The notes below the pieces were generated by a model. The model was not told the DNA's origin. It was given only the letters and a program-made list of their open reading frames with translations, and made no database searches. Positions 28 to 60,870 of a DNA stretch of 64,000 bases are shown here, piece by piece. Position numbers and translations under genes: made by a program. Source of the DNA: Bacteroidales bacterium (lineage in GTDB: Bacteria > Bacteroidota > Bacteroidia > Bacteroidales > VadinHA17); the NCBI GenBank assembly GCA_040769065.1, contig JAXGLU010000001.1, forward strand, positions 1,991,218-2,055,217, written 5' to 3'. Position 1 is the first letter of the stretch. Every line of letters starts with the position of its first letter.

Positions 28-98
28 CAGGACGAAACCCGTATGTTTTGAAAATTATGTACATATGTGTTTGTGTATGTGATATATGTGAATTTCAT
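28..98 (+). repeat. IR95 repeat, degenerate copy (IR95 is my working label for a ~95-bp hairpin-containing intergenic repeat family)
   Basis: 'gacgaaacccgtatgttttgaaaattatgtacatatgtgtttgtgtatgtgatatatgtgaatttcat' aligns by eye to the hairpin part of the copies at 21212-21502. The left AT-rich tail has diverged. Confidence 0.45.
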
Positions 99-293
99 TA
101 AATATTATGTAATATAGGCAGTAATACTACTATTATTGAAAAATATTTAATGATAAAGATTTCTCATTTGCAGTGATAATTCAATTGGGAAACATTAATT
201 TGAGCTAAACCCAGTTATATCATTCCCGGGATTTGTCCTGAAAATTTTTTAAATTTATAACAAGCAACATGTTACTAACTTAACCTCCAAAAA

Positions 294-1943
294 ATGAAAA
301 TACTTCGCCTTCTCCCACTGGTATTTCTGATATTCAGCTGCACACATAACAGTAATCAGAAAACAAATTGTGTCAATGTTGACGCCGAAATCTTACCCAC
401 CCTGGTGAATGATCATTTCGGGGGAGTGGGATTCAATGTCTTCGATCATATGCACAACGCATCACGCTGGCATTATGAGCAGATCTTCGCCAAAAGATGG
501 CGCGAACTCAATCCTTCTTTCGCCAGAGTTCCGGATGCCTGTAGCTGGGACTTCGGCAAAATTGACGAAGTGTCATGGTTCCTCGATGTTATGAAGGAAA
601 CAAATACCGAGATCTACATGACCACCTTCAGTAATACCTGCCTGAAGAAGGGCGTCAATGAAAACGAGTATGTGAAAAAAGAGGTCGACAATCTTGAATA
701 CCTTAAAAAAGTTAAGGGATTCAACAATATCACGTATTACTGCATGGCTAATGAGTTATCCCATGGGGAATGGGCATCCATGGTCAAAGACCTTGATTTT
801 TTCAAGAAGATCCACAAAATGTTCCATAATGAACTGCAATCAAGAAACCTCGGCATAGAACTACTGGCATCCGATGCATCCCCTTTTGAATACTGGCACA
901 CCATCGAATGGGCTGCAAACAATATGGACAGCATAACAGGTATTTACGGAGGGCATCACTATATAAATGACCGCGACCTGTTTGACAATTCTTTCTACAA
1001 ATACTTTCACGACAAAATAAAATGGGGAACCGACCTGGCCAAAACCAAAAACAAGAGATTCATCATGGGAGAATTCGGTGCAAAACAGAACAGTAATATT
1101 ATCGATTCTGTCATGCACGACGCAAATATGTATAACCATACCCCGCTTGAAAAATATATGTGCATTCAGGTGTCAGAAGCCATACTTGCATTAATAAATG
1201 CAGGATCTTACGCATGTGGATACTGGACTTTCAGTGATTTCCCCTTCCCGGCTAACGGCCGGCGCACAAACAAGTGGGGACTTTACCATTGGGAAATCGA
1301 TAACTATACAACCAAACCTGCCTATTACTGCCTTGGCCTGCTGACAAAATTCTTCAGAGGCCCCTCAGAAGCTTATGAGGTGGCTTTATCCGATTCTCTT
1401 ATCAGGGCTTCAGCAGTGAAAAATAAAGAGAACGGATCTGTTTCGGTAGCTGTAATAAACAGAAATGACCATCCTGCAAAAATCAACCTGAATCTGGGAT
1501 CCCTGACTGTTGACAAAGCTTTCAGAAAATACCTCTACGACCCTGAAAATGTACCGTTCAACTATTTTGGCGACCTTCAGGATCCATGCTGTAAAATACC
1601 TCTCAAGAAGAACGGCATCTCCGACATCATCCCGCCACATTCACTGGCAGTATACACCACCAGCTATGACGATGATCCGCCTGCAGGAGTCAGCAACCTG
1701 AAGATTGAAAGGATCAGGGAAGAAGGCCGCAACAGGGCGCTGCTAACCTGGGATCCAAATACCGAAAATGACCTGTGCTACTACAGAATCTACAGATCGA
1801 TAAAGCCCACCGTGGAAATCATTCCCCAAAACGAGATCGGAACAACTATTGCAAATTCGTTCAAGGATATTTCCGTTCATAACCTTCCGGAATATCACTA
1901 TCGGGTTATCGCAGTGGATCAATCGGGAAATGCCAGCAATTGA
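294..1943 (+). CDS. Secreted lipoprotein, clan GH-A-like TIM-barrel glycoside hydrolase with C-terminal Fn3-like domain
   Basis: 549-aa ORF with a signal peptide and lipobox 'LIFSC'. 'MANELSHGEW' (NE acid/base-like) and 'IMGEFGAK' (nucleophile E-like) are spaced as in clan GH-A. The C-terminal 'YYRIYRS...YHYRVIAVDQSGN' is Fn3-like. The GH family cannot be assigned by eye. Confidence 0.55.
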   Translation: MKILRLLPLVFLIFSCTHNSNQKTNCVNVDAEILPTLVNDHFGGVGFNVFDHMHNASRWHYEQIFAKRWRELNPSFARVPDACSWDFGKIDEVSWFLDVMKETNTEIYMTTFSNTCLKKGVNENEYVKKEVDNLEYLKKVKGFNNITYYCMANELSHGEWASMVKDLDFFKKIHKMFHNELQSRNLGIELLASDASPFEYWHTIEWAANNMDSITGIYGGHHYINDRDLFDNSFYKYFHDKIKWGTDLAKTKNKRFIMGEFGAKQNSNIIDSVMHDANMYNHTPLEKYMCIQVSEAILALINAGSYACGYWTFSDFPFPANGRRTNKWGLYHWEIDNYTTKPAYYCLGLLTKFFRGPSEAYEVALSDSLIRASAVKNKENGSVSVAVINRNDHPAKINLNLGSLTVDKAFRKYLYDPENVPFNYFGDLQDPCCKIPLKKNGISDIIPPHSLAVYTTSYDDDPPAGVSNLKIERIREEGRNRALLTWDPNTENDLCYYRIYRSIKPTVEIIPQNEIGTTIANSFKDISVHNLPEYHYRVIAVDQSGNASN

Positions 1944-2041
1944 CAAAACCCTGTCTGAATCACTGAATTTAGTTCATTTCAGGCTATGAGACTTACCTAT
2001 AGCCCTCCGGGAGTCCTCATACCTTCCAATTCCTCTTGTTT

Positions 2042-2491
2042 TCATTCCTTTTGATCTGGAATGACCAGGGGATATCTGTAAACATTGGTTTCGCGGAGTA
2101 TAAACCCGATTTTGCTGTATAACTGGTTTGCCGCGATCCTTGAAGGCCGCGAAGTAAGTTCTATCGATTCAGCGCCAAGAGACCTGGCAAATCCGATAGC
2201 AAATAATGTCAGTTCCCTGCCGATTCCCTTGCCCCTCTGAGACTCGTCTACAACCAGATCTTCGATCCATACCCTGATCCCTGTCGGGATCCTATATGTG
2301 GCTACGGTCAGAATACCGGCAACCTGACCATCATCAGATTCAGCCACAAAGAAATGAGCACTCTCAGAACGCAACATCTCTTTAAAATGCTCTCTGGAAG
2401 GTAATTTTATGCCGGGATCAAGCTGAGGCAACAATTTTAGAACTGCCTCATAAACCGTGTTGCTGAATCTTTTTATTTCCTTTATTGTCAT
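2042..2491 (-). CDS. GNAT family N-acetyltransferase
   Basis: 149-aa ORF with the acetyl-CoA binding motif 'VVDESQRGKGIGRELTLFAI'. Confidence 0.85.
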   Translation of the reverse strand: MTIKEIKRFSNTVYEAVLKLLPQLDPGIKLPSREHFKEMLRSESAHFFVAESDDGQVAGILTVATYRIPTGIRVWIEDLVVDESQRGKGIGRELTLFAIGFARSLGAESIELTSRPSRIAANQLYSKIGFILRETNVYRYPLVIPDQKE

Positions 2492-2551
2492 GCGAAAACA
2501 GAGTTATTATGTTGATAATGATTAATCTGACAGAAAGGCAATAGTATATGG

Positions 2552-7361: not shown

Positions 7362-7466
7362 TATGAAATCCACATGATTGAATGCAATAGCAAACACGTA
7401 AAGAATATAATTATCAATTATGTGCTATTCCATCCGACCTTTAAAATCAATATTGTATGCGGATGA
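7362..7466 (-). repeat. IR95 repeat, reverse orientation
   Basis: 'atgaaatccacatgattgaatgc...caattatgtgctattccatccgacctttaaaatcaatattgtatgcggatga'. The terminal GGATGA supplies ATG 7463. Confidence 0.8.
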
Positions 7467-7567
7467 AAAAATATGTCAAAATCTTATTATGGATTGCCGG
7501 TGCGATTATCGCTTTAATGATTATTTATGCGGCAGTGTACCTGATAAATTATTTCATCAGTACATAA
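7463..7567 (+). CDS. Possible 34-aa single-pass membrane mini-protein (MKKYVKILLWIAGAIIALMIIYAAVYLINYFIST)
   Basis: Below the ORF-track cutoff. The start codon lies in the end of the IR95 copy at 7362-7466 and the stop TAA in the end of the copy at 7552-7653. The core is strongly hydrophobic. There is no other support. Confidence 0.25.
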   Translation: MKKYVKILLWIAGAIIALMIIYAAVYLINYFIST

Positions 7568-7653
7568 TTTTTATTTCAATGGTCTGATGGAACCGCACAT
7601 GTTTGATAATTATACACATAAGTGTTTGTGTATGAAATACATGTGGGTTTCAC
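7552..7653 (+). repeat. IR95 repeat, forward orientation (subtype with 'ggtctgatgg')
   Basis: 'tttcatcagtacataatttttatttcaatggtctgatggaaccgcacatgtttgataattatacacataagtgtttgtgtatgaaatacatgtgggtttcac'. Confidence 0.8.
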
Positions 7654-13994: not shown

Positions 13995-14088
13995 TTTTAT
14001 CAGTATATAATTTTTATTTCAACGGTCTGATGGAACTCACATGCTTGAAAATTATATACATACGTGTTTGTGTATGATATACATGAAT
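13995..14088 (+). repeat. IR95 repeat, forward, 3' arm degenerate
   Basis: 'ttttatcagtatataatttttatttcaacggtctgatggaactcacatgcttgaaaattatatacatacgtgtttgtgtatgatatacatgaatg'. Confidence 0.7.
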
Positions 14089-14151
14089 GCAGCAGAACGC
14101 AGCAGGGGCGTTGCATTCAACGCCCCTGCCGTATCTGATCCTGTTGATTTG

Positions 14152-15810
14152 TTATCTTCTGCGCGATCCGGTTCCGGAATCAGATTCTTTTGAACTGTCG
14201 GTCCTTTTAGCTGCCGTGCCAGACGTAGCAGCACCGTTGTTTCTGTTTGCAGCAGAACTTTTGCTGACCGAAGCAGAAGACGGCCGCCTTGCAGTCTCTA
14301 CCCTGCTGTAGGATCCGGTTGCAGGCGCCGGTGTGGATATTCTGCGCATGGTAGCGGAAGAGCTTCTGTTTGATGAGCTGTTACCAGCTCTTTCAGTTGA
14401 AGCTGCAGCCTGCCTGCTGACTGTGTAGCTGCTCCTGTTTACTGGAATTGCTGCTTCCGGCCTGCGGGATCCTGTTGAGCCCTGTACAGAGGTGGAGCTT
14501 GATTCTTTTCTTTGACCTGCATCGTCTGATGATCTCCTGGTATTACCGGTACTCTTACTTGAAGATGTACTGGTTTGTCTTCCAGAAGGTGAAGCCGTGG
14601 TTGACCTGCGGGGGGTAGCAGTGCTTCTTTCTGTCGACGTTCCCGTTCCGGTCCTCGCAGGTGCGGCTGTAGTAGATCTGCGTGAGGTTCCTGTGCTTCT
14701 CTCCACCGAGGTCCCTGTTCCAGTCCTCGCAGGTGCAGCTGTAGTAGATCTGCGCGAGGTTCCTGTACTTCTCTCTACCGATGTTCCCGTTCCGGCTCTC
14801 TCAGGTGCAACTGTAGTAGACCTGCGCGAGGTTCCGGTTGTGGTAGCAGTTGATTTCCTGTCCTGAGACGACTGGGATACTGATCTTCTTTCCTGACTGC
14901 TGCTGGCAACACTTCCAGAGGTGCCGGAATCCCTCCGCGACTGGGTCCTGTTATAGAGAGCCTCCCCTTCACTCCTCAGCTCTGGACGTGAGTAAGTAGT
15001 CCTGTATCGTCCTTCGCTGATTCTCACGCTAACGTAAGGTGAATGCGAGCGGATTCTGCTGTAGTAGTAGTCATTGTACCTGGCGTAGCGGAAGTGGTTC
15101 CATTTTCTGTAGTGTACATAGTAGTGAGTATGCCAGCGATAGTGGTATCCGTAGTAGTAGTGCCAGTAGTAAGGGCGCCAGGGATTCCAGTAGGCAGGGT
15201 AGTAGCCCCAGTACCAGGTTGAGCGCCAGGCCACATAGCCGGGAAGGTATATGTACCTTACCAGAGGCCAGGATTCAACCACTATTGTTGTGGTTCTGAC
15301 CGGGACAGACCGCCTCTTTCTGCCTATATAGCCCGGGTTGGGAGTCTCTGCATAATTCTCGTCGTAGACGGGTTCAATTATGTAGTTCTTCCCGTACAGG
15401 GCCTTGTCGCCGATCAATTGTATCTGAACCGCCCCGTTGCGGAACTTCTGAACGGTAAATACTGCTACATCCTGCTTCTCATACTTATTTATTGCTACCT
15501 GCAAAACGATAGTATGAACATCTCCATCAACATAATCAATCACCATTATGTAGTCGACCAGATTGTCACCGTTCAGGTCGAGATTATTGATCCTTGAATT
15601 TTCATCATTGAGGCTTCTTTCAAAACCCTCAAGTGTTTCAGACTCCTGGAACAGTTTCATAACTGCATACAGGTTGAGATTATCGCCAGGCAGGCCAAGA
15701 TATTCATCCGGCCATTCTTGTGCCTTGGTAGCGGTCCCGAATGCTGTCAGGACTGCTAGGATCGAGGTGATTATGAGCTTTTTCATTTTCTTAAGTATTA
15801 GAAGATTCAT
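14152..15810 (-). CDS. Secreted protein of unknown function: folded N-terminal part, Tyr/Trp/His/Arg-rich segment, long Ser/Thr/Arg-rich repetitive tail
   Basis: 552-aa ORF with signal 'MKKLIITSILAVLTAFGTATKAQ'. It contains a Ca-binding-like 'DLNGDNLVDY', the aromatic run 'YWGYYPAYWNPWRPYYWHYYYGYHYRWHTHYYVHYRKW', and a ~290-aa S/T/R tail with 24-aa tandem repeats. Confidence 0.7.
   Translation of the reverse strand: MNLLILKKMKKLIITSILAVLTAFGTATKAQEWPDEYLGLPGDNLNLYAVMKLFQESETLEGFERSLNDENSRINNLDLNGDNLVDYIMVIDYVDGDVHTIVLQVAINKYEKQDVAVFTVQKFRNGAVQIQLIGDKALYGKNYIIEPVYDENYAETPNPGYIGRKRRSVPVRTTTIVVESWPLVRYIYLPGYVAWRSTWYWGYYPAYWNPWRPYYWHYYYGYHYRWHTHYYVHYRKWNHFRYARYNDYYYSRIRSHSPYVSVRISEGRYRTTYSRPELRSEGEALYNRTQSRRDSGTSGSVASSSQERRSVSQSSQDRKSTATTTGTSRRSTTVAPERAGTGTSVERSTGTSRRSTTAAPARTGTGTSVERSTGTSRRSTTAAPARTGTGTSTERSTATPRRSTTASPSGRQTSTSSSKSTGNTRRSSDDAGQRKESSSTSVQGSTGSRRPEAAIPVNRSSYTVSRQAAASTERAGNSSSNRSSSATMRRISTPAPATGSYSRVETARRPSSASVSKSSAANRNNGAATSGTAAKRTDSSKESDSGTGSRRR
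14581..14866 (-). repeat. In-frame 72-bp tandem repeat (~3.7 units) inside the 14152-15810 CDS
   Basis: Units start at about 14581, 14651, 14723 and 14795 and encode 'TGTSVERSTGTSRRSTTAAPARTG'. The same periodicity shows in the antisense track ORF 14597-14866. Confidence 0.8.
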
Positions 15811-21132: not shown

Positions 21133-21211
21133 ATTGTTTTATTATAAATAGGTTTTGTATTATAATTCTAAATTTTACAATTGTTTAATTTATTCTGCGA
21201 TTCTGCAATTT

Positions 21212-21502
21212 TCATCCGTATATAATTTATTTTAATGGTCGGATGGAACCGCACATGTTTGATAATTATATACATACGTGTTTGTGTATGTAATACATGA
21301 GGGTTTCATCCGTATATAATTTATTTTAATGGTCGGATGGAACCGCACATGTTTGATAATTATATACATAAGTGTTTGTGTATGCAATACATGTGGGTTT
21401 CATCATAATATAATTTTGATTTTTACGGTATGATGGAACCCACATGATTGAAAATCACATTCATTATATGTTTGCGTTTGAATTCAATCATGTGGGTTTC
21501 AT
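21212..21502 (+). repeat. Head-to-tail array of three IR95 units (21212-21305, 21306-21399, 21400-21502)
   Basis: Units 1 and 2 are near-identical, each 94 bp. Unit 3 is the 'ataatataattttgattttt...ggaacccacatgattgaa...ttcaatcatgtgggtttc' subtype. Each unit starts with TCATC, which is also the end of the preceding unit. Confidence 0.9.
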
Positions 21503-22989: not shown

Positions 22990-23134
22990 TGTTTATTCTG
23001 TTAGTGCTGTAATTGCTGTTCATTTACATGACAATGATCCATAACTTTCCCGGCATCTGCATATTATTCCCGCCTTCACTCTTAAAGTATATCAGGACGG
23101 TTCTTGTTTATCTCGACAATGTCTGCCGGTTTTT

Positions 23135-23233
23135 TCACACGTATATAATTTATTTTAATGGTCGGATGGAACCGCACATGTTTGATAATTATATGCATAA
23201 GTATTTGTGTATGAAATACATATGGGTTTCATC
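23135..23233 (+). repeat. IR95 repeat, forward
   Basis: 'tcacacgtatataatttattttaatggtcggatggaaccgcacatgtttgataattatatgcataagtatttgtgtatgaaatacatatgggtttcatc'. Confidence 0.85.
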
Positions 23234-23927: not shown

Positions 23928-24025
23928 AGCTACTGCCTTGAAATGTTAATTAATCCAACGGGGAAGTTACATCTGCCGTAATCATAATAACTTCAACCGG
24001 CAATCCAAATGTACTGATTGATTCC

Positions 24026-24179
24026 TGAAAATAAATTATATTTGAAAGTTCCATCAGACCATTGAAATAAAATATACTGTGAAACCCACATGATTGAATT
24101 CAAACGCAAACACGCAATGAATACAATTTTCAATCATGTGTGGTTCCATCCGACCTTTAAAATCAAAATTATATTATGA
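24026..24179 (-). repeat. IR95, one full reverse copy (24079-24179) preceded by two truncated tail fragments (24026-24045, 24048-24078)
   Basis: Full copy: 'gtgaaacccacatgattgaattcaaacgcaaacacgcaatgaatacaattttcaatcatgtgtggttccatccgacctttaaaatcaaaattatattatga'. Fragments: 'gttccatcagaccattgaaataaaatatact' and 'aaaataaattatat'. Confidence 0.8.
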
Positions 24180-25513
24180 TAAAAAGAAATTTACTTACTT
24201 GTGCCGGAATTTTACTTATCTGTTCGTGCTGCAACAGGAACAGCCACATAGGCGAAACAACAGTAACAAAATGGCAAGACGGAAAAAAAGGAGCGGTATC
24301 CCTGACCTATGATGACGGAACGATAAACCAGTTCCTTAAAGCTCTCCCAATAATGAACGAGCTTGGTTTTCCGGCAACATTTTTCATCAATACAGGTGTG
24401 ATAAAAGGCTCAAAACACAAGGGAACTTTTATCGGAAGGCCTGTAAATAATATCATAAAAGAAACGGCTAATGTGCCGACAAACAGTGAAAACTTCTATG
24501 AGAGGGCATCAGCAGCAAGATATCTCGGCCTGAGAGGGACAGGCGAATATCATACAAATGCCGGTGCACAGATCGATGAAGGCAATCCTGAAGAAGCTTA
24601 CAGGATAATGGACGAACTCTATGAAAAGGTCAGGAAAGGAGAATTTGCTCCAGCCAGAAAAAGTGGAAATGACAGCGAAAATGAAGGAGTAGTATCCTGG
24701 GATGACATCAGATCATTCGCAGCACAGGGACACGAATTTGCAAGTCACATGGTGACACATCCGCGGCTGGCAGCCCTTGACGAAGCCAACATACTTTATG
24801 AACTTGAGAAAAGCCGCGAGGAGATTCTGAATCAGCTTGGACCTGAACATACTTTTTCAGCTGAGGTTCCTTATGGAACCGAAAATGACCGGGCCATGGA
24901 ATACTCATACAAAGTATATCCTGCTCTCAGGAACAGGATGCCTGAAGATTTCCTTAAGGAACTTAACAGGGCAAGCAGAGAGGATCCGGTATCTGCCGAT
25001 AAAGAGTACGTCCAATGGCAGCGCGGAGCCACAACAAAAACCCCCATGCCTCTTATGAAATCATGGATCGACACAACAGCATCTCATGATAACATCTGGC
25101 TTGTACTTGTTTTCCACGGCATTGACGGAATAGGCTGGGAAGCCCTTACCAGCGAGGCAATTGAAGATTATTTCAGATACATAAAGGATAAAGAGGAAGT
25201 TCTATGGGTGGCAACATTCGGTGATGCAGCGAAATACATGCGCGAAAGAATGAATTCAACCGTCAGCTCAGAGAATAAAAAAGGAAGCATCAAAGTGAAT
25301 TTAAGCCATTCTCTTGATACATCCATGTACAATTTACCACTTACACTAAAGACATATGTCCCCTCAAAATGGCAGAAAGTGATTGTAAAACAGGGTGATA
25401 ATATCACCACGACACTTCCGCTGAAGGATTCAAACGGCTGTTTTGTCCTTTACCGGGCAGAACCCAACTCAGCTGTGACAGAACTGTTGCGCGACCAGAC
25501 TGACCAGGTATAA
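24176..25513 (+). CDS. Polysaccharide deacetylase (CE4) family lipoprotein
   Basis: 'GAVSLTYDDGTINQF' and 'FPATFFINTG' (NodB motifs 1-2), 'HEFASHMVTHP' (motif 3), and lipobox 'LLICSC'. The ATG lies in the terminal ATGA of the IR95 copy. Confidence 0.8.
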   Translation: MIKRNLLTCAGILLICSCCNRNSHIGETTVTKWQDGKKGAVSLTYDDGTINQFLKALPIMNELGFPATFFINTGVIKGSKHKGTFIGRPVNNIIKETANVPTNSENFYERASAARYLGLRGTGEYHTNAGAQIDEGNPEEAYRIMDELYEKVRKGEFAPARKSGNDSENEGVVSWDDIRSFAAQGHEFASHMVTHPRLAALDEANILYELEKSREEILNQLGPEHTFSAEVPYGTENDRAMEYSYKVYPALRNRMPEDFLKELNRASREDPVSADKEYVQWQRGATTKTPMPLMKSWIDTTASHDNIWLVLVFHGIDGIGWEALTSEAIEDYFRYIKDKEEVLWVATFGDAAKYMRERMNSTVSSENKKGSIKVNLSHSLDTSMYNLPLTLKTYVPSKWQKVIVKQGDNITTTLPLKDSNGCFVLYRAEPNSAVTELLRDQTDQV

Positions 25514-38254: not shown

Positions 38255-38266
38255 TGTTACTATGAA

Positions 38267-38448: not shown

Positions 38449-38452
38449 CAGA

Positions 38453-39888: not shown

Positions 39889-40947
39889 ATGAAAGAAGAA
39901 TTGGACTACAGGGAACTGCTTGTTAAATTTTTAGCCGGCGAGATTTCTGATAACGAAGCTGACGTTTTAAAGGAATGGCTGAAAAAAGATCCTGACAACC
40001 GGAGGATTTTTGATATTGAAAATGAATTGTGGCAGAAAACAGGGGTAAAGACTATTCTTGACCATTTTAAAACTGATGAAGACTGGTCGGAAATTTCCGG
40101 GAAGATTGGATTGAAAAAAGATGGTGAAGGCCACTTAATGACAATTACCAGGACCAGGTTCAGAATACTGATAGCAGCAGCATCAATCGCCTTTTTAGCT
40201 GCACTGGGGGGTATTACATTATGGATGACCGAAAGAAAATCGGTAAAAATGATATCCGACGCATCAACAGTCATCAGCACCTGTGAGGGAGAAAAGGCAA
40301 GAATCTGGCTTTCAGACTCTACAAAAGTAATCATCAATTCAGGAAGCAATATCGAATATAAATCAGATTATAATGTCAGGGAACGTATTTTAAAACTGAA
40401 AGGGGAGGCCTTTTTTGATGTTCGGACAAACCCTGAAAAACCCCTTCTGGTACAGCTGGGAGAAATGACCATCTCTGCAGCTGGAACTAAGTTCAATGTT
40501 TTTTCCTACGAAAATGAAGATCGTATTGAAACAACACTTGAAGAAGGTAAATTAAAGGTTGAAATACCCGGGCTGGAGTCAATTGAATTAAAAGCCGGTC
40601 AGCAGGTCGTTTATTTCACAAAAAAGAAAAAAGCCGAAGTGAGGAATGTAAATACGGAAACCTATACGTCATGGAAAGAAAACAAGCTTAGGTTTATTGA
40701 CACACCTTTCGAAGAGGTATTAAGAAGGATTGCGAGACGATATAATGTCACTTTTGAGGTGACAAGCAGGCACCTTCTTGACCTGCAATATACAGCTACC
40801 TTTATTGATGAGTCTATCGAAGAAGTGATGCATATGTTAAGGGAAGTAAGTCCCATTACTTACAAAATACATAACCGTACCACAGTTAAGGATAAATATT
40901 ATCTAAAACCCAAGATTGTTGTGGGCAAGAGAAAAAGTTCCGTTTGA
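39889..40947 (+). CDS. FecR-family anti-sigma factor
   Basis: N-terminal anti-sigma segment, a single TM ('ILIAAASIAFLAALGGITLWM'), a FecR domain ('LSDSTKVIINSGSNIEY...LKGEAFFDV') and a C-terminal DUF4974-like part. Confidence 0.85.
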   Translation: MKEELDYRELLVKFLAGEISDNEADVLKEWLKKDPDNRRIFDIENELWQKTGVKTILDHFKTDEDWSEISGKIGLKKDGEGHLMTITRTRFRILIAAASIAFLAALGGITLWMTERKSVKMISDASTVISTCEGEKARIWLSDSTKVIINSGSNIEYKSDYNVRERILKLKGEAFFDVRTNPEKPLLVQLGEMTISAAGTKFNVFSYENEDRIETTLEEGKLKVEIPGLESIELKAGQQVVYFTKKKKAEVRNVNTETYTSWKENKLRFIDTPFEEVLRRIARRYNVTFEVTSRHLLDLQYTATFIDESIEEVMHMLREVSPITYKIHNRTTVKDKYYLKPKIVVGKRKSSV

Positions 40948-41195
40948 CCTGAAATATAATTATTTAACCTACTCTAAACCTCTAATGCCTATGAAATAAA
41001 CCTTCTACGACAAGAAAAAGCAGGGAAGCCCTTCCCGGCCTCCCCGCAGTTTTAAAGCATTTATACCCGATTCTAGCCCGGTAAAAATGCGATTTAGCTT
41101 ATTAACTTTCTAAATCATACAAATTTATGAAAAAAATCTTTATTGTTTTACATACAGGTCCGTTCCGTGTCTGTACGTATAAAATTATCAGAATC

Positions 41196-44100
41196 ATGAA
41201 ACTAACCTATTTTCTGTTATTTTCTACAATTCTCAGTGCATATAGCAGTTCAACATATTCCCAGTATACAAAGTTGAACCTCGAAATGGAGGATGTCCCG
41301 ATCCATACAGTGCTTAGCTCAATAGAAAGACAGAGCGAATTCTTTTTCCTTTATAGCTCAAAAATGATAGATGTTACCCAAAAAGTAGACATCAAAGCTG
41401 AAGGACAAAGTGTTTATGAAATTATGGATAAGCTTTTTGCGGATACCGATATTAAATACACTGTAAGGGACAGACAGATACTTCTTGTAAACAAAGAAGC
41501 CGAACCTGTAATAACACCTGTGCAGAAGAGGATCACAGGACGTATAACCGACGAAAACGGATTACCTGTTACAGGGGCAAATGTTACAGTGAAAGGATCA
41601 ACCGTTGGGGCTATAACTGATATTGATGGCAGATATAGCCTGATCCCTCCCGACAGAGCTGAAACTCTCATAATATCATTTGTCGGCTACATATCTCAGG
41701 AAATAAATATCGGTAATGCATCGACAATAAATGCTACTCTGGTCCCGGACACACAATCCCTTTCTGAAGTGGTGGTTGTGGGATATGGATCGCAAAGGAA
41801 AAGCGACATTACCGGTTCTGTAAGCTCAGTTAAAGGCCCCGACCTGGTTCAACTGCCCTCTATCAGGTCAGATGAAGCCTTACAAGGACGTGCCGCCGGC
41901 GTTGTGGTCACAAACAATGACGGGGCTCCGGGTGGTGCAGCAACGATCAGAATCAGGGGAGGAAATTCAATTACAGGAAGCAACGATGCCCTTGTAGTAA
42001 TTGACGGATTTCAGGGAGGAGATCTCAGCTCATTGAATCCCAATGAGGTCGAATCAATAGAAGTACTTAAGGATGCTTCGGCTACAGCTATATATGGCTC
42101 AAAGGGCGCCAACGGAGTGATTCTTGTTACAACAAAAAGAGGAAAGACCGGAGCTCCCATTATTGATTACAGCTATAGCTACGGTGCTCAGTCAATTGTA
42201 AAGAAAATTGACCTTTTCAATGCCGGTGAATATGCAAGGATAGCCAATGTATGGAAAGCATCCCAGAATCTCTACGGTGATCCTGTACTGCCCTTCACTG
42301 AAGCTCAGATTGCCGAGCTTGACAGGAAAGGGGGAACTGACTGGCAGGACGAGATGTTCCGGACAGCCCCGTTACAGATACACCAGATCTCTTTAAGGGG
42401 AGGATCGGAGTCAGTCAGATATTTCATTGCAGGAGGCTATTTTGATCAGACAGGATTGATCGTCAATACTCAGTTCGAACGCTATACTCTTCGGTCTAAT
42501 CTGGATATGAACCTTACAAAATGGCTGAAGGGTGGCCTTAATATGAATGTGATCAAGGACAAAGGCAATATACCTCCGTCAGGAGAAGGTACCAGATATG
42601 TCGATATTTTAACTCAGGCTGTTAATGCTGTCCTTCGCTTCGATCCCATAACTCCTGTCTTTGATGAACTTGGCAATTACAGCAGACCACCCAGTACATA
42701 TGGCGACAGGGATGTCTGGAATCCGATGGCTACAGCTATGGGCTCTTTTAACGAGCGGAGCAACACGACAACCAATTTAAATGCATTCCTGGAATTCAGA
42801 ATCATTGAAGGACTAACCCTCAAAGTTACCGGTGCTGCCGGAATCTATAATTCTGACAGGAAACAATATTACAATACTCTGACAAAAGTAGGAAGACCTA
42901 TTAATGGCATTGGTAATCTGATAGATGACAAAAATCTATATTATCAGAACTCAAATATTCTTACATATGATAAAATCATAAATACAAAACATCATTTAAC
43001 CCTTACGGGTGTGGCTGAGCAGCAGTCGACCTCGGCCTATGGTTCGAACATACAGGTTCAGGGATTTGCCTCCGATATTACCGGTGTTTATGATATAGGC
43101 GGAGCAAGCCAGACAAATTACAGATCTTCTTATGAATCAAAAAGAAATATAAATTCATGGTTGCTCCGTGCCAACTACGGATTTGCCAATAAATATCTGC
43201 TGACAGTAAGCTATCGGGCAGACGGATCCTCAGTTTTTGGTAAGAACAATAAGTGGGGTTATTTCCCGTCGGCATCCATTGCCTGGAGAGCATCAGAAGA
43301 AGATTTTATAAAAACCCTCAATATCTTTTCTGATCTGAAGCTGAGAGGAAGCTGGGGTCAGACGGGTAACCAGGCTATCGCTGTTTATGGTTCACTGGCA
43401 AAGATCGGATCGGGATTGAATTATCCCTATAACGGCACAAGCACTACTGATACAGGGTATGGTATAACAAGTGCTCCAAATGTGAATCTCAAATGGGAAA
43501 CAACCTCACAGACCAACCTTGGTATTGACATGGGATTTTTTAAGGGCAGGCTGACAGCTACATTCGATGTATATCGGAAAGAGACCTCCGACCTGCTTCT
43601 TGACAAGCCTGTTCCATTCTATACAGGGGCACCAAGTGCTCAGTTACTGGATAATGTAGGGTCGATCGAAAACAAAGGAATGGAAATTACTGTCAGCGGT
43701 GATCCGCTGGTGCGTTCTTTCAGATGGAACACCGGCATAAACATTACAATAAACAGAAGCAAAGTACTTAAGCTGCTTAATGAATTACCGATGGGTCTGA
43801 AAACATCTACCGGTGGCGGATATGGAATCTACAGGGCAGCATCCAATTCACTGATGTATCTGCAGGAAGGCCAGCCAATGGGCCAGATGCGTGGTTATAT
43901 CGTTCTGGGCACATGGAGTGAGGCGGAACGTGACGAAGCCCTGAAATATGGCCAGCTGCCCGGCGATCAGAAGTACAAGGATATTAACAATGACGGAAAG
44001 ATAACTGAAGCCGGAGATGTTACAGTGATAGGAAATTCATCACCTGATTTTGTTTTCGGATGGAATAACAGTATGGCCTGGAAAAACTTCACCCTCTCCT

Positions 44101-44582
44101 TCCTTATTCAGGGATCACAGGGTAATGATATATTCAATGCAACCAGGATACAACTCGAAGCTCCCAGCAAGGGAACTAGCAAAGCCCTGGATAACAGATG
44201 GACAATTGACAACCAGGATACCGACATCCCGGCATTTACCGACCAGATAACACGACGAGAAGCTCTTCTGGGAATACCATCAAAGATAAACCTCGGAAGG
44301 TCACCTAATAGACTTAGCAGATATGTTGAAGACGGATCCTATGCCAGGCTGAAAACAATAACTCTGGGATATAACCTCCCGAAAACACTTATCGAAAAAG
44401 TTGGCCTTTCTAACCTCAGGGCATATGTCACAGCTGCCAACATCATTACCCTAACAAAGTATTCCGGCTATGATCCGGAGGTTAGTTCCTTTAACGTTGC
44501 TACCGATGGGGGAAGAGGAATAGATCTGAGTAATTATCCCACTGTAAAAACAATCACATTCGGAATCAATTTAACTTTCTAA
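41196..44582 (+). CDS. susC: SusC/RagA-family TonB-dependent transporter with N-terminal STN signalling domain
   Basis: STN-like 'EDVPIHTVLSSIERQSEFFFLYS', a CarboxypepD_reg-like 'ITGRITDENGLPVTGANVTVKGS', plug 'VVVVGYGSQRKSDITGSV...NGVILVTTKRG', and C-terminal '...ITFGINLTF'. The start was moved to MKLTYFLLF (41196). Confidence 0.9.
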   Translation: MKLTYFLLFSTILSAYSSSTYSQYTKLNLEMEDVPIHTVLSSIERQSEFFFLYSSKMIDVTQKVDIKAEGQSVYEIMDKLFADTDIKYTVRDRQILLVNKEAEPVITPVQKRITGRITDENGLPVTGANVTVKGSTVGAITDIDGRYSLIPPDRAETLIISFVGYISQEINIGNASTINATLVPDTQSLSEVVVVGYGSQRKSDITGSVSSVKGPDLVQLPSIRSDEALQGRAAGVVVTNNDGAPGGAATIRIRGGNSITGSNDALVVIDGFQGGDLSSLNPNEVESIEVLKDASATAIYGSKGANGVILVTTKRGKTGAPIIDYSYSYGAQSIVKKIDLFNAGEYARIANVWKASQNLYGDPVLPFTEAQIAELDRKGGTDWQDEMFRTAPLQIHQISLRGGSESVRYFIAGGYFDQTGLIVNTQFERYTLRSNLDMNLTKWLKGGLNMNVIKDKGNIPPSGEGTRYVDILTQAVNAVLRFDPITPVFDELGNYSRPPSTYGDRDVWNPMATAMGSFNERSNTTTNLNAFLEFRIIEGLTLKVTGAAGIYNSDRKQYYNTLTKVGRPINGIGNLIDDKNLYYQNSNILTYDKIINTKHHLTLTGVAEQQSTSAYGSNIQVQGFASDITGVYDIGGASQTNYRSSYESKRNINSWLLRANYGFANKYLLTVSYRADGSSVFGKNNKWGYFPSASIAWRASEEDFIKTLNIFSDLKLRGSWGQTGNQAIAVYGSLAKIGSGLNYPYNGTSTTDTGYGITSAPNVNLKWETTSQTNLGIDMGFFKGRLTATFDVYRKETSDLLLDKPVPFYTGAPSAQLLDNVGSIENKGMEITVSGDPLVRSFRWNTGINITINRSKVLKLLNELPMGLKTSTGGGYGIYRAASNSLMYLQEGQPMGQMRGYIVLGTWSEAERDEALKYGQLPGDQKYKDINNDGKITEAGDVTVIGNSSPDFVFGWNNSMAWKNFTLSFLIQGSQGNDIFNATRIQLEAPSKGTSKALDNRWTIDNQDTDIPAFTDQITRREALLGIPSKINLGRSPNRLSRYVEDGSYARLKTITLGYNLPKTLIEKVGLSNLRAYVTAANIITLTKYSGYDPEVSSFNVATDGGRGIDLSNYPTVKTITFGINLTF

Positions 44583-44586
44583 GAAA

Positions 44587-46065
44587 ATGAAAAAAACATA
44601 TAGGAATATTTCAGCATGGTGCATTATTATATTGCTCATTATGACGGGAATATCTTGTCTGAAGCTTGAGGAAGAACCTAAAGGATTATCAACCCCTGAT
44701 AATTTTTATTCAACTCCTGGCCAGTGTGAAGCTGCTTTTGCTGCCTCCATGAACACCCTCTATAATACCTGGGAGGGTTATGAAAATGTATACGGTGCTT
44801 TTCCTGACGGACAATATACCAACGTCAACCTCGATTATGGCCCTAATTATAATTCAATGTACTGGCAGATCCATTACAGGGCGATAAATGATATAAATGC
44901 TGTCTTAAAAGCGGTAATTAAGCGAAACAGCCTGGGAGCCACTGATCCTGTGACAGTTAAAAACATCATTGCCCAGGCAAAATTTCTCAGGGCATTCAAT
45001 TATTTCACCCTGGTCAGATTATGGGGAAAGGTACCATTTTTAACAGAGCACTCTCCCGATCCTATAAGTAATCCGCTTACACCCGAATCCCGTCTGGAGA
45101 TCGCTGCCATATATGATTCCCTTGAAGCGGATCTGGATTTTGCAATTGAAAATCTTGAAGATTATGATGCTTCACGCCCGGCACGCCCGAATATATGGCT
45201 GGCAAAAACATTGCTTGCAAAAGTCTATATTACACGGGCAACTAATCCTCTGAATGAGACATCCTATTATGCCAAAGCAAGAGATCTGGCTGATGATATT
45301 ATTTTGCACGGCCCATTTGTTCTTCTTCCAAAATTCGAGGATGTTTTTCTGAGTACAAACAAGAATAACCTGGAGATTATCTGGGCTTTTCAGACTACGG
45401 ACGATGATCCTAATATCGATGGTGTAGCTATGGCGCCATCAGAGTGGGGTGGCTGGAGCGGAGGAGCCGTCAAGCCCCGCTGGGCGGAGGAATATCCGGA
45501 ACAGCCCCGTAAGAAGGGCTACATTTTAATGGATTTTCCCTCGGACATTACAACTGATCCGATGGGACCGATTATCAATTATAGGGAGTCCATTGACGGA
45601 ACACCGTATATCCAGAAATATCTGTGGCCGATGATAACACTCGAGGAACAGCTTAATATATCACGGCAATACGCTCCCATTTACAGGTTCCCCGATGTTT
45701 TGCTTATCTATGCCGAGGCAGCCAACATGGCCGGAACCGGTCCTACACAGCTTGCAGTTGACCGTATAAACATGATAATAGACAGGGCTAACACCGATGG
45801 CAAGACAGGATTAATGACCGGTACTGAGCCAAGAGCAGACATCACCATGTCGCAGGCTGAATTTGATGCCAAAGTGATAAGGGAGAGAGACCTGGAGCTC
45901 TGCTTTGAGAATGACAGAATCTTCGATGTTTTCAGAAAAAGATTGTTACAGGAAGTAACTGTCGATGAGGAAGGAGTGCCCAATCCCGATTATAACGAGA
46001 ATTGCTACCTCTTCCCGATCCCTGTCAATGATGCACTGGACATAGGCCAGAACCCAGGCTATTGA
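44587..46065 (+). CDS. susD: SusD/RagB-family nutrient-binding lipoprotein
   Basis: Starts 5 nt after susC. Has lipobox 'TGISC' and TPR-like SusD motifs ('AKFLRAFNYFTLVRLWGKVPF', 'RERDLELCFENDRIFD'). Confidence 0.9.
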   Translation: MKKTYRNISAWCIIILLIMTGISCLKLEEEPKGLSTPDNFYSTPGQCEAAFAASMNTLYNTWEGYENVYGAFPDGQYTNVNLDYGPNYNSMYWQIHYRAINDINAVLKAVIKRNSLGATDPVTVKNIIAQAKFLRAFNYFTLVRLWGKVPFLTEHSPDPISNPLTPESRLEIAAIYDSLEADLDFAIENLEDYDASRPARPNIWLAKTLLAKVYITRATNPLNETSYYAKARDLADDIILHGPFVLLPKFEDVFLSTNKNNLEIIWAFQTTDDDPNIDGVAMAPSEWGGWSGGAVKPRWAEEYPEQPRKKGYILMDFPSDITTDPMGPIINYRESIDGTPYIQKYLWPMITLEEQLNISRQYAPIYRFPDVLLIYAEAANMAGTGPTQLAVDRINMIIDRANTDGKTGLMTGTEPRADITMSQAEFDAKVIRERDLELCFENDRIFDVFRKRLLQEVTVDEEGVPNPDYNENCYLFPIPVNDALDIGQNPGY

Positions 46066-46158
46066 TATATTGTTCCTCATATAAAATTTACAGCCTCACT
46101 GAAATTTTGTGGGGCTGTAATATATAATCAGGATTCTTCAAAATCATGAAATAATGTC

Positions 46159-58108: not shown

Positions 58109-58204
58109 TGCACAACTTTTACGGGAAGCATAACTGAAACTATATGGATCCGTTTCCTCAAAAACAGAAGCCTAAATCAAATGGACAATAGATCCCTAAA
58201 TGAG

Positions 58205-58292
58205 AGATATTTTAACGGTATAATGGAACCCACATAACTGAAAATTATATTCATTACGTGTTTGCGTTTTCATGCAATCATGTGGATTTCAT
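58205..58292 (+). repeat. IR95 repeat, forward, left tail truncated
   Basis: 'gatattttaacggtataatggaacccacataactgaaaattatattcattacgtgtttgcgttttcatgcaatcatgtggatttcat'. Confidence 0.75.
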
Positions 58293-58437
58293 ATACACAC
58301 CCCGCATAATGTCTCAAATATCCCTGGAATCATCTGACTTTAGATTATTCATAACTTAATTTTATTCAAGCTATGCAGACATTATTATCAATATGTACGT
58401 TATTATCAATATAAACGACACTAACCAATATTAACCA

Positions 58438-59553: not shown

Positions 59554-59602
59554 ATGGGGTCACTCATAATTCCATATGTAACACAATACTGAGCAAAACA
59601 GG

Positions 59603-59738
59603 TTCACCGGAATGAAGCATGTATTTGTCAATGGTATCCGGGTACTTAAAGACGATGAGCATACATACCGGAACCAAGTCCTGCTGGATTGTCAGTGGTC
59701 CGGGATATAAGTACCAGGTAACTAGCGATAGCCATTAA
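59603..59738 (+). pseudogene. C-terminal remnant (~45 codons, apparent +1 frameshift near 59666) of a D-aminoacylase-type amidohydrolase
   Basis: Frame 1 reads 'FTGMKHVFVNGIRVLKDDEHT' and the shifted frame reads 'TGTKSCWIVSGPGYKYQ'. Compare the family C-terminus 'GI..V.VNG..V..DG..TG..PGR.LRGPG' as I remember it. No upstream body is present. Confidence 0.35.
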
Positions 59739-59759
59739 TAAAGGCCCGGAAGTATTTCA

Positions 59760-60656
59760 TTACCTGGGTGCATCAAACAAGTGCAGGGCATTCTCGACAA
59801 CATTTTCCTTTGTTATCAGTTTGGGTTCAGGCAGCCTGGGATCAAGATCAAGATACTGCATCTTAATATGAATGGGCGTTTTCATGACATAAGGCTTGCA
59901 ATAAGGTATTGCTGCCACCGCTTTTTTTGCTCCTTCATACAGAGCCTGGCGGGTCTCATTAAATGGATAAAGAACGGCAGCTTCTCTTGCAAGTCCGCGT
60001 TTTGTGGCAACAGTTACAACGTTCTCTCCAAGGAATTCCCTTGCTTCACGGCAGGTGGCCTCATCGCCTGTGACCATAATAACAGGTACGCCATAGTATC
60101 CGGCAATTGCCCCGCTCTGGGCTATCTCTCCCGATTCCACTCCATTGTACCAATAACGATTTTCAGACCTTGAACTCTGCGTATGACAAAGGACACCATC
60201 GGGTGTGCCCATCATTGCATGGAAACCGAGAAGTACCATGCCTGCATACGTACTGTCGAGGAGGCTTGCAACGCCCGGCCTGGGAATCCCGGTTATGTAA
60301 TGTGCCCCAGGCTCCATCAGGTGAGGTAAAACTGCCTGAGTTCCGTGTCCGTCAAGAACTACAATCTCAGTAGCTCCTCCATCGCGCAGACCTCTTATCA
60401 CTGCAGAAAGGTCAGCCATAAAGAACTCACAAGCCTGTATATTCAAAGGAGTGTCCTTTTCACGGGTCTGCGAAAACTTGAAAACACCACTTATCCCTTC
60501 AAGATCAGTATTAACATAGATCTTAACCTGGGCTAGCGATATTTGAGAAACACAAAGGAAAATCAGTGACATCACCTTCATGAAATTCCCGGTCTTAATT
60601 CTTTTTAAAAATGAAATCGATTCATCCGAAACAGTTTTTAATCTTTCTCTTTTCAT
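59760..60656 (-). CDS. M55 (DppA-type D-aminopeptidase) family protein with N-terminal signal
   Basis: 'KIYVNTDLEGISGV' and 'GFHAMMGTPDGVLCHT' are DppA-like. The start is ambiguous: ATG 60656 lies at the IR95 junction, while ATG 60581 gives 'MKVMSLIFLCVSQISLAQ'. The track start at 60695 reads into the repeat. Confidence 0.65.
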   Translation of the reverse strand: MKRERLKTVSDESISFLKRIKTGNFMKVMSLIFLCVSQISLAQVKIYVNTDLEGISGVFKFSQTREKDTPLNIQACEFFMADLSAVIRGLRDGGATEIVVLDGHGTQAVLPHLMEPGAHYITGIPRPGVASLLDSTYAGMVLLGFHAMMGTPDGVLCHTQSSRSENRYWYNGVESGEIAQSGAIAGYYGVPVIMVTGDEATCREAREFLGENVVTVATKRGLAREAAVLYPFNETRQALYEGAKKAVAAIPYCKPYVMKTPIHIKMQYLDLDPRLPEPKLITKENVVENALHLFDAPR

Positions 60657-60870
60657 CCTTATATAATTTATTTTAATGGTTGGATGGAACCGCACATGAT
60701 TGTGATAATTATATTCATTACGTGTTTGCGTTTGAATTTAATCATGTGGGTTTCATCCGTATATAATTTATTTTAATGGTCGGATGGAACCGCACATGTT
60801 TGATAATTACATACATACGTGTTTGTGTATGCAATACATGTGGGTTTCATCATAATATAATTTTGATTTG
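60653..60870 (+). repeat. Head-to-tail IR95 array: unit 1 (60653-60762, 110 bp), unit 2 (60763-60846), truncated unit 3 (60847-60870)
   Basis: Both full units begin 'tcatcc(g/t)tatataatttattttaatggt(c/t)ggatggaaccgcacatg' and end 'catgtgggtt'. The trailing 'tcatcataatataattttgattt' is the start of the third subtype. Confidence 0.9.

Follow-up and report, generated by a model that had tools for sequence, protein, structure and literature searches.

The repeat family IR95 is apparently a previously undescribed mobile DNA repeat, best read as a hairpin transposon resembling the REP or IS200/IS605-derived elements. Its members are AT-rich, about 95-140 bp long, and are characterized by a forward strand that folds into two adjacent hairpins, HP1 and HP2, with a central arm common to both. 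They lie immediately 3' of (T)TTCAT; ~60% of them abut a start codon, and their orientation relative to it never varies. As neither a partner enzyme nor an autonomous copy was found, we only infer the mechanism of movement from the repeats and their sites.

The family is genuine. In the window, i.e. the entire 64-kb stretch of DNA that was analysed, an nhmmer profile built from the 13 copies of the original prediction recovered all 13 of them (E 1.7e-14 to 8.9e-32; Table 1), 10 of which are intact; the three fragments listed alongside are also real, each deriving from the 5' (HP1) side. A core 13-mer occurs 17 times in the window as against 4.5 +/- 2.1 in shuffles, with 0/100 shuffles reaching 17, and TRF detects a 94-bp tandem array at 21210-21455. 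A wider profile search of genomes and metagenomes, proposed at the outset, returned 166 full copies across 155 loci, and at least 23 genomes of GTDB species contain true copies. The hosts, which belong to the Bacteroidales, Rikenellaceae and Lentimicrobiaceae, are poorly studied environmental Bacteroidales (digesters, sediments). Short-read contigs are seen to end at the copies. No named repeat or Rfam family had been put forward for it at the outset, and searches of Rfam, plasmids, phages and the literature gave no match. Among the Rfam 15 covariance models only tRNA-Gln passes the gathering score, and IR95 matches none, the FopS and Bacteroidales motifs included; the E-value mode yields far sub-threshold matches, nearly all to miRNA models, in addition to rteR and SNORD111.

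Table 1. IR95 copies, fragments and an enclosed ORF in the window.
Position	Strand	Feature	Evidence
23..100	+	IR95 copy (c28), 5'-truncated, degenerate; only HP2 and 3' TTTCAT left	nhmmer E 1.7e-14, profile positions 31-108
7363..7468	-	IR95 copy; the 34-aa ORF 7464-7568(+) starts with the ATGAAA complementary to its 5' TTTCAT	nhmmer
7464..7568	+	Small membrane-like ORF, 34 aa (MKKYVKILLWIAGAIIALMIIYAAVYLINYFIST), between two divergent IR95 copies; stop codon within copy 7552-7653; other assemblies annotate a 36-aa gene here
7552..7653	+	IR95 copy, CAG/CTG subtype	nhmmer
13995..14097	+	IR95 copy without 3' end (c13995)	nhmmer
21210..21309	+	IR95 copy 1 of triple tandem array, CCG/CGG subtype; missing in other strains	nhmmer
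21304..21403	+	IR95 copy 2 of triple array, CCG/CGG subtype; missing in other strains; TTTCAT common to both adjoining copies	nhmmer
21398..21502	+	IR95 copy 3 of triple array, CATA/TATG subtype, extended HP2	nhmmer
23133..23232	+	IR95 copy whose mutated 5' flank reads TTTCAC	nhmmer
24024..24078	-	Two 5' (HP1) IR95 fragments, 24048-24078 and 24024-24047, immediately behind copy 24079-24184: one HP1 unit with HP2 deleted, ending at GATGGAAC, and a shorter HP1-loop piece	weak nhmmer match 24047-24072
24079..24184	-	IR95 copy; start of gene 24176-25513(+) inside its 5' end; TTTCAT mutated to TTTTAT, gene start shifted to the in-frame ATG within the CATA stem	nhmmer
52892..52992	+	IR95 copy, older, diverged; gene 51683-52897(-) has its start codon in the TTTCAT	nhmmer
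58192..58295	+	IR95 copy, degenerate 5' part (c58205)	nhmmer
60651..60756	+	IR95 copy; M55 peptidase gene 59760-60656(-) has its start codon in the TTTCAT (60651-60656)	nhmmer
60751..60850	+	IR95 copy, tandem; locus copy number strain-dependent	nhmmer
60845..60870	+	5' IR95 fragment (TTTCATCATAATATAATTTTGATTT), last piece of array

The anatomy differs from that first proposed, namely an AT-rich tail followed by one hairpin: the tail is the loop of HP1, whose 5' arm is TTTCATC(NNN). HP1 comprises TTTCATC-NNN paired to NNN-GATGGAA around a conserved AT-rich loop, with compensatory subtypes, and HP2 comprises CC(N)CACATG... paired to ...CATGTGGG beneath a variable apex. At least three subtypes had been distinguished; these hold, and further ones exist. 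The central GATGGAA, situated directly 5' of the HP2 foot, has alternative partners, either the TTTCAT of the 5' flank or the TTTCAT ending the element (GGGTTTCAT), and is complementary to both in 131/131 copies. It is the only putative guide segment; its pairing is canonical, and pairing with the 3' end is kept equally well as that of HP1. The G that had been seen to face a T wherever both arms were intact proves to be an invariant G·T wobble (U-G pair), present in all 131 distinct copies from many genomes. A check of covariation finds compensatory pairs at 20-47 (AU 91, CG 31, UA 2), 21-46 (GC 69, UA 51) and 84-140 (UA 68, AU 41). Paired cells amount to 91.2%, versus 84.8% in shuffles (0/500 reach the observed value) and 27-45% with the partners slid. 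The forward strand is stabler than the reverse in 136/140 copies with RNA parameters and in 121/140 with DNA parameters. The strand asymmetry of the fold, as originally pointed out, is supported; between the RNA and the single-stranded DNA that had been suggested, we favour action as DNA.

The target is equally well-defined. CAT is present at the 5' boundary in 168/174 copies, and in 103/174 the boundary hexamer is the reverse complement of an ATG-AAA start of an ORF of at least 60 aa. ATGAAA is a common gene start (162/691 called genes), and the frequent contact with start codons is explained by TTTCAT being its complement. The AT-rich side does point toward gene 5' ends, as had been claimed: of the 141 arrays with a called neighbour, 121 have a divergent gene start on their 5' side, 79 of these within 15 nt. 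The statement that all copies are intergenic is nearly correct, the exceptions being three window loci, where the first 6 nt of the repeat (TTTCAT) are the start and Lys codons of the neighbouring gene, and the copy at 7552, which overlaps the end of the 34-aa ORF. Two decisive features had escaped the original prediction, namely the direct TTTCAT at the flank and the fact that it coincides with the ATGAAA start codon of the divergent gene.

The 5' flanks are sometimes deviant (ATTCAT, CTTCAT, GGTCAT), and the 3' end (GGGTTTCAT) is constant; hence, the 3' TTTCAT is probably element-encoded. This argues against a 6-bp target duplication, and one of 4-5 bp may occur. The same observations bear on whether IR95 might be an ordinary MITE of a DDE transposase with a 5-6 bp TTCAT target duplication, which its direct TTCAT at both ends, its size of ~100 bp and its mainly intergenic placement would fit. 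We consider this origin highly improbable: terminal inverted repeats are absent, in agreement with the earlier remark that this is no classical TIR-MITE, and the ends, C(A/C)(T/G)(A/T)ATATAA... and ...CATGTGGGTTTCAT or ...CATGTGGG(T), are unrelated. Moreover, the 5' and 3' hexamers are unequal in several copies with the 3' one constant, and the target is strictly sequence-specific with a fixed orientation.

Insertion polymorphism, which had been put forward as worth seeking, is apparent at two loci. At the 60.65-kb locus, contigs with an identical encoded protein have 2, 1 or 0 copies, and a related species with a 90%-identical ortholog displays a clean empty site, ...AAGACCT|ATGAAAAAAGAG. At the 21.2-kb locus there are three copies here and one in four other contigs. 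The two extra copies represent another subtype and sit precisely between the flanking TTCAT and the resident copy (21398-21502), which is found in all strains seen; any simple insertion model requires one extra G/T change at target position -6. Tandem arrays are head-to-tail, with one TTTCAT common to adjoining copies.

The location of 60% of the copies exactly at a start codon could also be understood if IR95 were primarily an RNA element, with its spread being secondary. It might act as an mRNA-leader switch, wherein the upstream AUGAAACC and the real start (NNNGAUGAAA) would be alternative pairing partners of GGUUCCAUC, thereby switching translation, or give rise to an sRNA from a TAnnTTTG box in the HP1 loop. 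In line with this, HP1 encloses an AUG on the gene strand and its inner pairs covary; the loop sequences (ATATAATTT, TTTTAA, GTGTTTGTG) are strongly conserved; and the exact Bacteroidetes -7 box TAnnTTTG is present on the forward strand of the HP1 loop in 43/140 copies, with a near match in 105/140. Multicopy sRNA families are also found in Bacteroides: like the FopS/GibS sRNAs, IR95 is a multicopy intergenic family in Bacteroidota (PMC11697453). FopS has 12-15 copies per genome, is restricted to the Bacteroidaceae and features a single-stranded 5' seed and a terminator (PMC11697453); unlike FopS, which is in Rfam, IR95 has no match to it or to any other Rfam model. Further, the wobble becomes an A-C mismatch on the gene-sense strand, making this the poorer folder, and 40% of copies have no abutting gene. 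The inner pairs of HP1 are intact in 89% of the copies that abut a start, 96% of those that do not and 100% of those inside arrays; thus, HP1 is as intact far from start codons and within tandem arrays, and its intactness is independent of gene context. No gene family is specifically associated with the copies, only one subtype has the exact -7 box, a transcript from that box would be devoid of the HP1 5' arm, and copy number differs between strains with an identical flanking protein. A primarily RNA-level function is hence unlikely in our assessment; loop conservation beyond the needs of a spacer could nevertheless reflect an RNA or protein-binding role.

We lean toward IR95 being a non-autonomous, strand-specific element that moves as folded single-stranded DNA via a trans-acting enzyme, most likely of the HUH/Y1 type. 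GATGGAA would serve as a guide presenting both cleavage sites, the left flank TTTCAT| and the right end TTTCAT|, to a transposase probably similar to IS200/IS605 TnpA or to RAYT. Tandem arrays would arise when a new copy inserts at the TTTCAT flanking a resident one. Start-codon insertions, we propose, may be tolerated because the gene keeps its ATGAAA and gains an AU-rich leader with no evident terminator on the gene strand. If the forward strand is the active one, its placement relative to GC skew would be opposite to the IS608 rule: the forward strand of 11/13 window copies is the + strand, with negative GC skew, a pattern confounded by gene orientation (35/54 genes on the - strand). A bolder version, which we regard as doubtful, would make IR95 a new minimal kind of single-strand transposon in which one guide reads both cleavage sites, the G-T wobble shields the element's own complementary strand and the ATGAAA start context is the preferred target. 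In that event, the 5' leaders of many genes of uncultured Bacteroidales would be systematically replaced, and IR95 might also add a competing uAUG/AUG pairing switch to mRNAs.

In 1.5 Mb of repeat-carrying loci (~210 matches), we found no autonomous copy, no gene bracketed by IR95 ends and no recurrent transposase among the neighbouring genes; nor did these loci yield the partner first suggested, an IS200/IS605 TnpA or RAYT gene with this hairpin at its flanks. The sole Y1/RAYT-like gene seen (L035:132-578) was rejected as a partner, its flanks being its own unrelated GC-rich CAGGGCAATGCCCTG-type palindromes. Alternatively, the folded strand might be moved by a tyrosine recombinase, as are integron attC sites and the CTX-phage attP, with GATGGAAC/GTTTCATC as an R''/R'-like box with AAC...GTT, and the tandem arrays as ORF-less cassettes. 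Like attC, IR95 is an imperfect hairpin formed by a folded single strand, 60-140 nt long, with a bulged base, a variable apex and, at its foot, AAC...GTT, the triplets reading at attC-like positions. It also combines head-to-tail arrays with a strand-specific fold, and in a circle or tandem array both stems would stack as a single uninterrupted duplex that carries a bulged G, and the scissile position would fall inside a stem. Unlike attC, the copies are scattered over hundreds of sites rather than grouped behind one attI and have no cassette ORFs, and their target has no G|TT because only 19% of flanks have G as the preceding base, compared with 51% that have T. An integron-type integrase (IntI) was not found near the copies, and the only integrase in the window is part of a tRNA-Gln island; moreover, integron integrases need less than a 6-nt conserved target. 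We therefore deem movement by such a recombinase quite unlikely.

If the reading of IR95 as a hairpin transposon is true, it is both widespread and very dense, with 13 copies in the 64 kb of the window, and it replaces the upstream leader of each gene it touches. As strains with the same protein differ in copy number, it could plausibly give rise to rapid regulatory variation. In practical terms, it affects both contig assembly, via breaks, and gene-start calls: the database version of the M55 peptidase, at 311 aa, begins from a GTG inside IR95, whereas the ortholog-supported start gives 298 aa. More generally, gene callers push ORFs into the repeat.

Like the IS200/IS605-derived PATEs and IS608/ISDra2, IR95 has neither inverted terminal repeats nor an evident target duplication. 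With PATEs and IS608 it further shares the position 3' of a short specific sequence, imperfect strand-asymmetric hairpins and the capacity to settle repeatedly beside one target. IS608 recognises its target TTAC via a guide 5' of the hairpin foot, and the comparable segment of IR95, immediately 5' of the foot, is complementary to the sequence of its putative cleavage site (PMC5027513). Unlike IS608, with its contacts of 4 nt, partly non-canonical, IR95 would have a guide-site contact of 6-10 canonical pairs including the invariant G-T, a disparity that counts against the proposed mechanism. Its single central guide appears to serve both ends; if true, guide-directed single-strand transposition would here take a compact form. 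IR95 also differs from the IS200/IS605 elements in that no cognate TnpA-bearing element was found among the ~210 matches, its left site lies within HP1, a covarying stem, and its target is a hexamer coinciding with start codons. With the REP/REPIN sequences it shares high copy number, a non-coding, hairpin-forming and strand-specific nature, a conserved motif 5' of the stem and clustered arrays; like these with their RAYT, it presumably owes its movement to a single-copy HUH enzyme acting in trans. REPs are GC-rich, 20-40 bp long and bear a GTAG or CGTC tag (PMC3733652, PMC2817692). They are usually located downstream of genes. In contrast, IR95 is AT-rich, ~100 bp long and devoid of either tag, with GATGGAA as the motif 5' of the stem; its arrays are head-to-tail, unlike the alternating REPINs. 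Lastly, it is located upstream of genes, and among the bacterial repeats compared it is unusual in sitting directly on start codons.

IR95 is a real family of dispersed repeats: a search profile built from the 13 copies of the window (alignment A1) recovers exactly the 13 copies of the original prediction, with E-values from 1.7e-14 to 8.9e-32, and its three fragments are also borne out, all of them being 5' pieces of the repeat. Ten of the 13 copies are complete: those starting at 28 and 13995 (c28 and c13995) are without the 5' third and the 3' end, respectively, and the 5' part of c58205 has decayed. The core GGAACCNCACATG occurs 17 times in the window against 4.5 expected, a count reached by none of 100 shuffles, and TRF gives a 94-bp period for the triple array at 21.2 kb, whose tandem units can also be seen by eye. 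All 13 copies lie in 36 kb of the window; the other 28 kb (24200-52880) are free of IR95 and take in an ECF-sigma/anti-sigma and SusC-like locus and a tRNA-Gln island (see table). The latter, with a partial repeat of the tRNA beside a tyrosine integrase gene, looks like a ~6.8-kb element integrated in the tRNA-Gln gene (window 31604-38453), and there are no IR95 copies inside it. Two further repeats of the window lie in coding sequence: a 72-bp tandem repeat is probably a repeated protein module, and a 176-bp direct repeat runs over two small ORFs that are probably paralogs, since the first is a thioredoxin-family gene. With a G+C content of ~42% and genes for a SusC-type TonB-dependent receptor, a Fib_succ_major protein and a GH18 enzyme, the source of the window is a member of Bacteroidota; contigs with proteins identical to those of the window come from anaerobic-digester and similar metagenomes.

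Beyond the window, true copies occur in at least 23 species-level genomes labelled Bacteroidales, Rikenellaceae, Rikenella, Lentimicrobiaceae or Bacteroidia, the pattern used to scan genome contigs being loose, such that about three quarters of its matches are chance ones in unrelated phyla. One further 2.7-kb contig with a true copy is binned as Peptococcaceae, probably wrongly. A specific pattern finds at least 120 loci in metagenomes, and among the matches listed the profile matches number at least 210, at least 166 of them full length, and the grouping of adjacent copies gives 157 single, 14 double and 2 triple arrays. Plasmid and phage collections searched with blastn gave no IR95 match, and of three viral-contig scans one was empty and each of the others returned 2 loci, both times on one and the same pair of contigs, so IR95 is essentially chromosomal.

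On the forward strand the layout of IR95 is TTTCAT↓C...GATGGAACC-hairpin-GGGTTTCAT↓ (arrows, putative cleavage sites), with GGGTTTCAT as the 3' end of every copy. An AT-rich tail and a single hairpin had been proposed: the hairpin stands, the tail does not, because both single-copy folds and an alignment (A3, made with MAFFT) of 131 distinct copies, taken from many genomes, give two adjacent hairpins, and the supposed tail is the loop of the first. The paired arms of this first hairpin (HP1) are TTTCATC-NN(N) and (N)NN-GATGGAA, and its loop, ATATAATTT...TTTTAA(T/A)GG, is conserved; in the second (HP2) CC(N)CACATG... pairs with ...CATGTGGG, and the apex is variable, yet contains a conserved ATTATAT...GTGTTTGTG. 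As IR95 ends in TTTCAT, the central arm GATGGAA is able to pair either with the TTTCAT of the 5' boundary or with that of the 3' end; circularised or in tandem, IR95 would have its HP1 and HP2 stems stacked as one rod. RNAalifold predicted no pairs on the 131-copy alignment owing to its gap-rich columns, and explicit pair counting was used in its place. The copies being related by descent, the resulting counts reflect a handful of events and not 131 independent ones: pairing holds in 91.2% of cells, a value that none of 500 column shuffles reaches (84.8%) and that falls to 27-45% with the partners slid; double-change cells number 147 against 61 expected; at least four compensated versions of the inner HP1 pairs exist (CCG/CGG, CAG/CTG, CATA/TATG and CTG/CAG); and the ninth HP2 pair alternates between T-A (68) and A-T (41).

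Two finer points of the original prediction hold across genomes. The G opposite T is indeed invariant, as a T-G pair in 131/131 copies and likewise in the alternative 3' pairing; a speculative reason for this invariance is that a perfect guide, GATGAAA, would make a TTTCATC target on the opposite strand. The strand asymmetry is also general, the forward strand being the better folder in 136/140 copies with RNA parameters (mean -27.7 versus -21.5 kcal/mol for the complement) and in 121/140 with DNA parameters. Some copies have additional GC-rich mini-hairpins (GAGCTCGCAAGCTCGG or CCCGACAAAGTCGGG, for example) in the HP2 apex or beside GATGG, which may represent another, nested family of small repeats. 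A coding role was rejected, as uORFs on both strands are broken by subtype indels in the 131-copy alignment.

A feature that the first reading missed is the boundary of IR95 at start codons. Directly 5' of every copy stands (T)TTCAT, and the 5' hexamer reads ATGAAA on the opposite strand, where its ATG opens an ORF (at least 60 codons, or reaching the contig end) in 103 of the 174 copies that are not array-internal; among unoccupied TTTCAT sites of the same loci, 134/1623 (8%) are gene starts. Of 141 arrays for which a cruder gene call gives a neighbour, 121 have a divergent gene start on the 5' side, 79 of them within 15 nt. At the 3' side a co-directional gene start follows in 35%, close to the 29% expected from the background, and thus there is no sign that IR95 serves the downstream gene. 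Outside long ORFs, TTTCAT sites at gene starts are ~5 times more occupied than others (103 occupied/134 free versus ~71/455), which, given crude gene calls and loci picked for containing a copy, is a hint rather than proof of an extended target or of selection.

Coordinates of genes abutted by IR95 and of other features discussed in the text (window positions unless a contig is named)
Feature	Coordinates	Strand	Remarks
M55 peptidase, abutted	59760-60656	-	
WbsX-like transferase, abutted	51683-52897	-	
Deacetylase, abutted	24176-25513	+	hexamer mutated; in-frame HP1-stem ATG now the start
34-aa membrane-like ORF, abutted	7464-7568	+	single helix; between two divergent IR95 copies
ORF bracketed by convergent copies	23371-23856	+	clear terminator
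30-bp tandem repeat	23464-23530		in the bracketed ORF
ORF of 552 aa	14152-15810	-	no Pfam match
72-bp tandem repeat	14641-14835		2.7 copies, 88% matches; inside the 552-aa ORF
176-bp direct repeat	25740-25915 / 26247-26422		78% identity; over two adjacent small ORFs
Thioredoxin-family gene	25580-25960		first of the two small ORFs
tRNA-Gln(CTG)	31604-31677		
Repeat of tRNA-Gln 3' 50 nt	38404-38453		96% identical
Tyrosine integrase gene	36998-38320	-	beside the tRNA-Gln repeat
ECF-sigma/anti-sigma and SusC-like locus	39002-48597		
RAYT-like Y1 (HUH) gene	L035:132-578		within L035:1-900; motif HVHLL
Copy with mini-hairpins	L029:4097-4244		
Copy with mini-hairpins	L049:2190-2373		
Copy with mini-hairpins	L091:4782-4926		
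Copy with mini-hairpins	L139:6-141		
Copy with mini-hairpins	L163:4522-4690		
Copy with mini-hairpins	L164:2740-2860		

The 34-aa ORF starts at the TTTCAT of one copy and stops inside the other, and is a 36-aa gene in other assemblies. The database model of the M55 peptidase (P0001) has 311 aa and a GTG start inside IR95 (IR95 stretch at window 60657-60695); the ATGAAA start, giving 298 aa, is supported by an ortholog with an empty site. Gene callers are misled by IR95, and short-read contigs often end at the repeat. Insertions at the start codon would plausibly be tolerated, since the ATGAAA of the gene is retained and an AU-rich leader is acquired. No U-run follows the hairpin on the strand of the abutted gene, and a canonical Bacteroidetes promoter facing that gene was found in only 2 of 140 copies. 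IR95 may nonetheless have a role as RNA, for which speak its strongly conserved loops, the exact TAnnTTTG box that one subtype (43/140 copies) has in its HP1 loop, and the enclosure of the AUG by HP1 on the gene's strand. The inner pairs of HP1, though, are intact in 89% of gene-abutting, 96% of non-abutting and 100% of array-internal copies; this equal preservation with or without gene contact argues that the fold serves the element rather than the neighbouring mRNA.

Three locus comparisons indicate that IR95 is mobile. At 60.65 kb all contigs encode an identical 298-aa peptidase: the window has two copies and a fragment, contigs L119 and L121 one copy and a fragment (the L121 copy being of another HP1 subtype), and L115 a hybrid fragment only. 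A species with a 90%-identical ortholog has an empty site, ...TATACAAATAAGACCT↓ATGAAAAAAGAGAG..., although the intergenic region around it can be aligned, which implies that the gene's ATGAAA pre-existed and that the elements were added directly before it. At 21.2 kb four contigs with an identical neighbouring 357-aa protein have only a CATA/TATG copy; the window has two extra CCG/CGG copies, which start right after the TTCAT of the flank and stop right before the resident copy, and as these newcomers are of another subtype they point to insertion from elsewhere, not slippage. The sole other difference over ~330 nt is at target position -6 (window 21204), which is G (GTTCAT) in the one-copy allele (L262-L264, L266) and T (TTTCAT) in the three-copy allele; the change fits no simple insertion model, and the T allele may be a better target. 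L119 and L115 show that arrays also shrink by recombination, and HP2 can drop out as a whole, so that HP1 fragments stand alone. Among the contigs compared no polymorphism was found at the 52.9-kb and 7.4-kb loci.

The 3' TTTCAT is constant while the 5' flank reads ATTCAT, CTTCAT or GGTCAT, and is therefore element-borne and not a 6-bp duplication. IR95 combines a fixed target sequence and orientation, strand-asymmetric folding, head-to-tail arrays with one hexamer in common and presence/absence polymorphism with a lack of terminal inverted repeats, so that, as predicted, it is not a TIR-MITE. We propose that it would move as folded single-stranded DNA, with GATGGAA, directly 5' of the HP2 foot, offering the two cleavage sites to an HUH/Y1 enzyme that acts in trans. 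In IS608, TTAC is recognised by a guide situated on the 5' side of the hairpin foot (PMC5027513), and the same logic may apply to IR95; in contrast, the forward strand of IR95 is the negative-GC-skew strand in 11/13 window copies, a pattern that would misfit the IS608 orientation rule and is confounded by gene orientation. An attC- or CTX-like action of a tyrosine recombinase on the folded strand is quite improbable in view of the dispersed sites and the targets without G↓TT; on the same two grounds IR95 was rejected as an attC array.

Among the IR95 loci collected we found no autonomous version, no gene bracketed by IR95 ends and no recurrent recombinase. The 'half' matches considered as autonomous versions are all contig ends or copies with the extra GC-rich mini-hairpins in the HP2 apex. 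A Y1 or RAYT partner flanked by the repeat had been suggested; tblastn with approximate Y1 transposase baits gave one true RAYT-like gene, on contig L035, with unrelated flanks, the other weak matches being antisense frames of a glycosidase. This gene has GC-rich palindromes of its own (CAGGGCAATGCCCTG; GTAAGGCCTACGGCC) and forms a REP/RAYT-type system distinct from IR95, the two occurring together in one Rikenellaceae genome. There is likewise no recombinase among 1101 clustered ORFs neighbouring IR95, whose recurrent families, sensor kinases, oxidoreductases, ECF sigma factors and SusC, are all common in Bacteroidota. The window ORF that lies between the two convergent copies (23.1 and 24.1 kb) encodes, instead of an enzyme, a secreted Q/T/N-rich low-complexity protein.

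Rfam offers no match: apart from tRNA, searches at gathering scores and in E-value mode gave just chance matches far below threshold, nearly all of them to miRNA models. The FopS sRNA differs in architecture and host range and was rejected. A literature string search with four IR95 motifs found no paper, and searches on MITEs in Bacteroidales and on TTTCAT with IS605 found nothing relevant. IR95 acts most like the IS200/IS605-derived elements or the REP/RAYT repeats. From the former it differs in that no cognate TnpA was found and in its single guide; from the latter, in lacking the GTAG/CGTC tag and in size, composition and position. We rate it as belonging to the hairpin-bearing non-autonomous repeats, among which its distinctive property is the systematic abutment of start codons, absent from the repeat families compared here.
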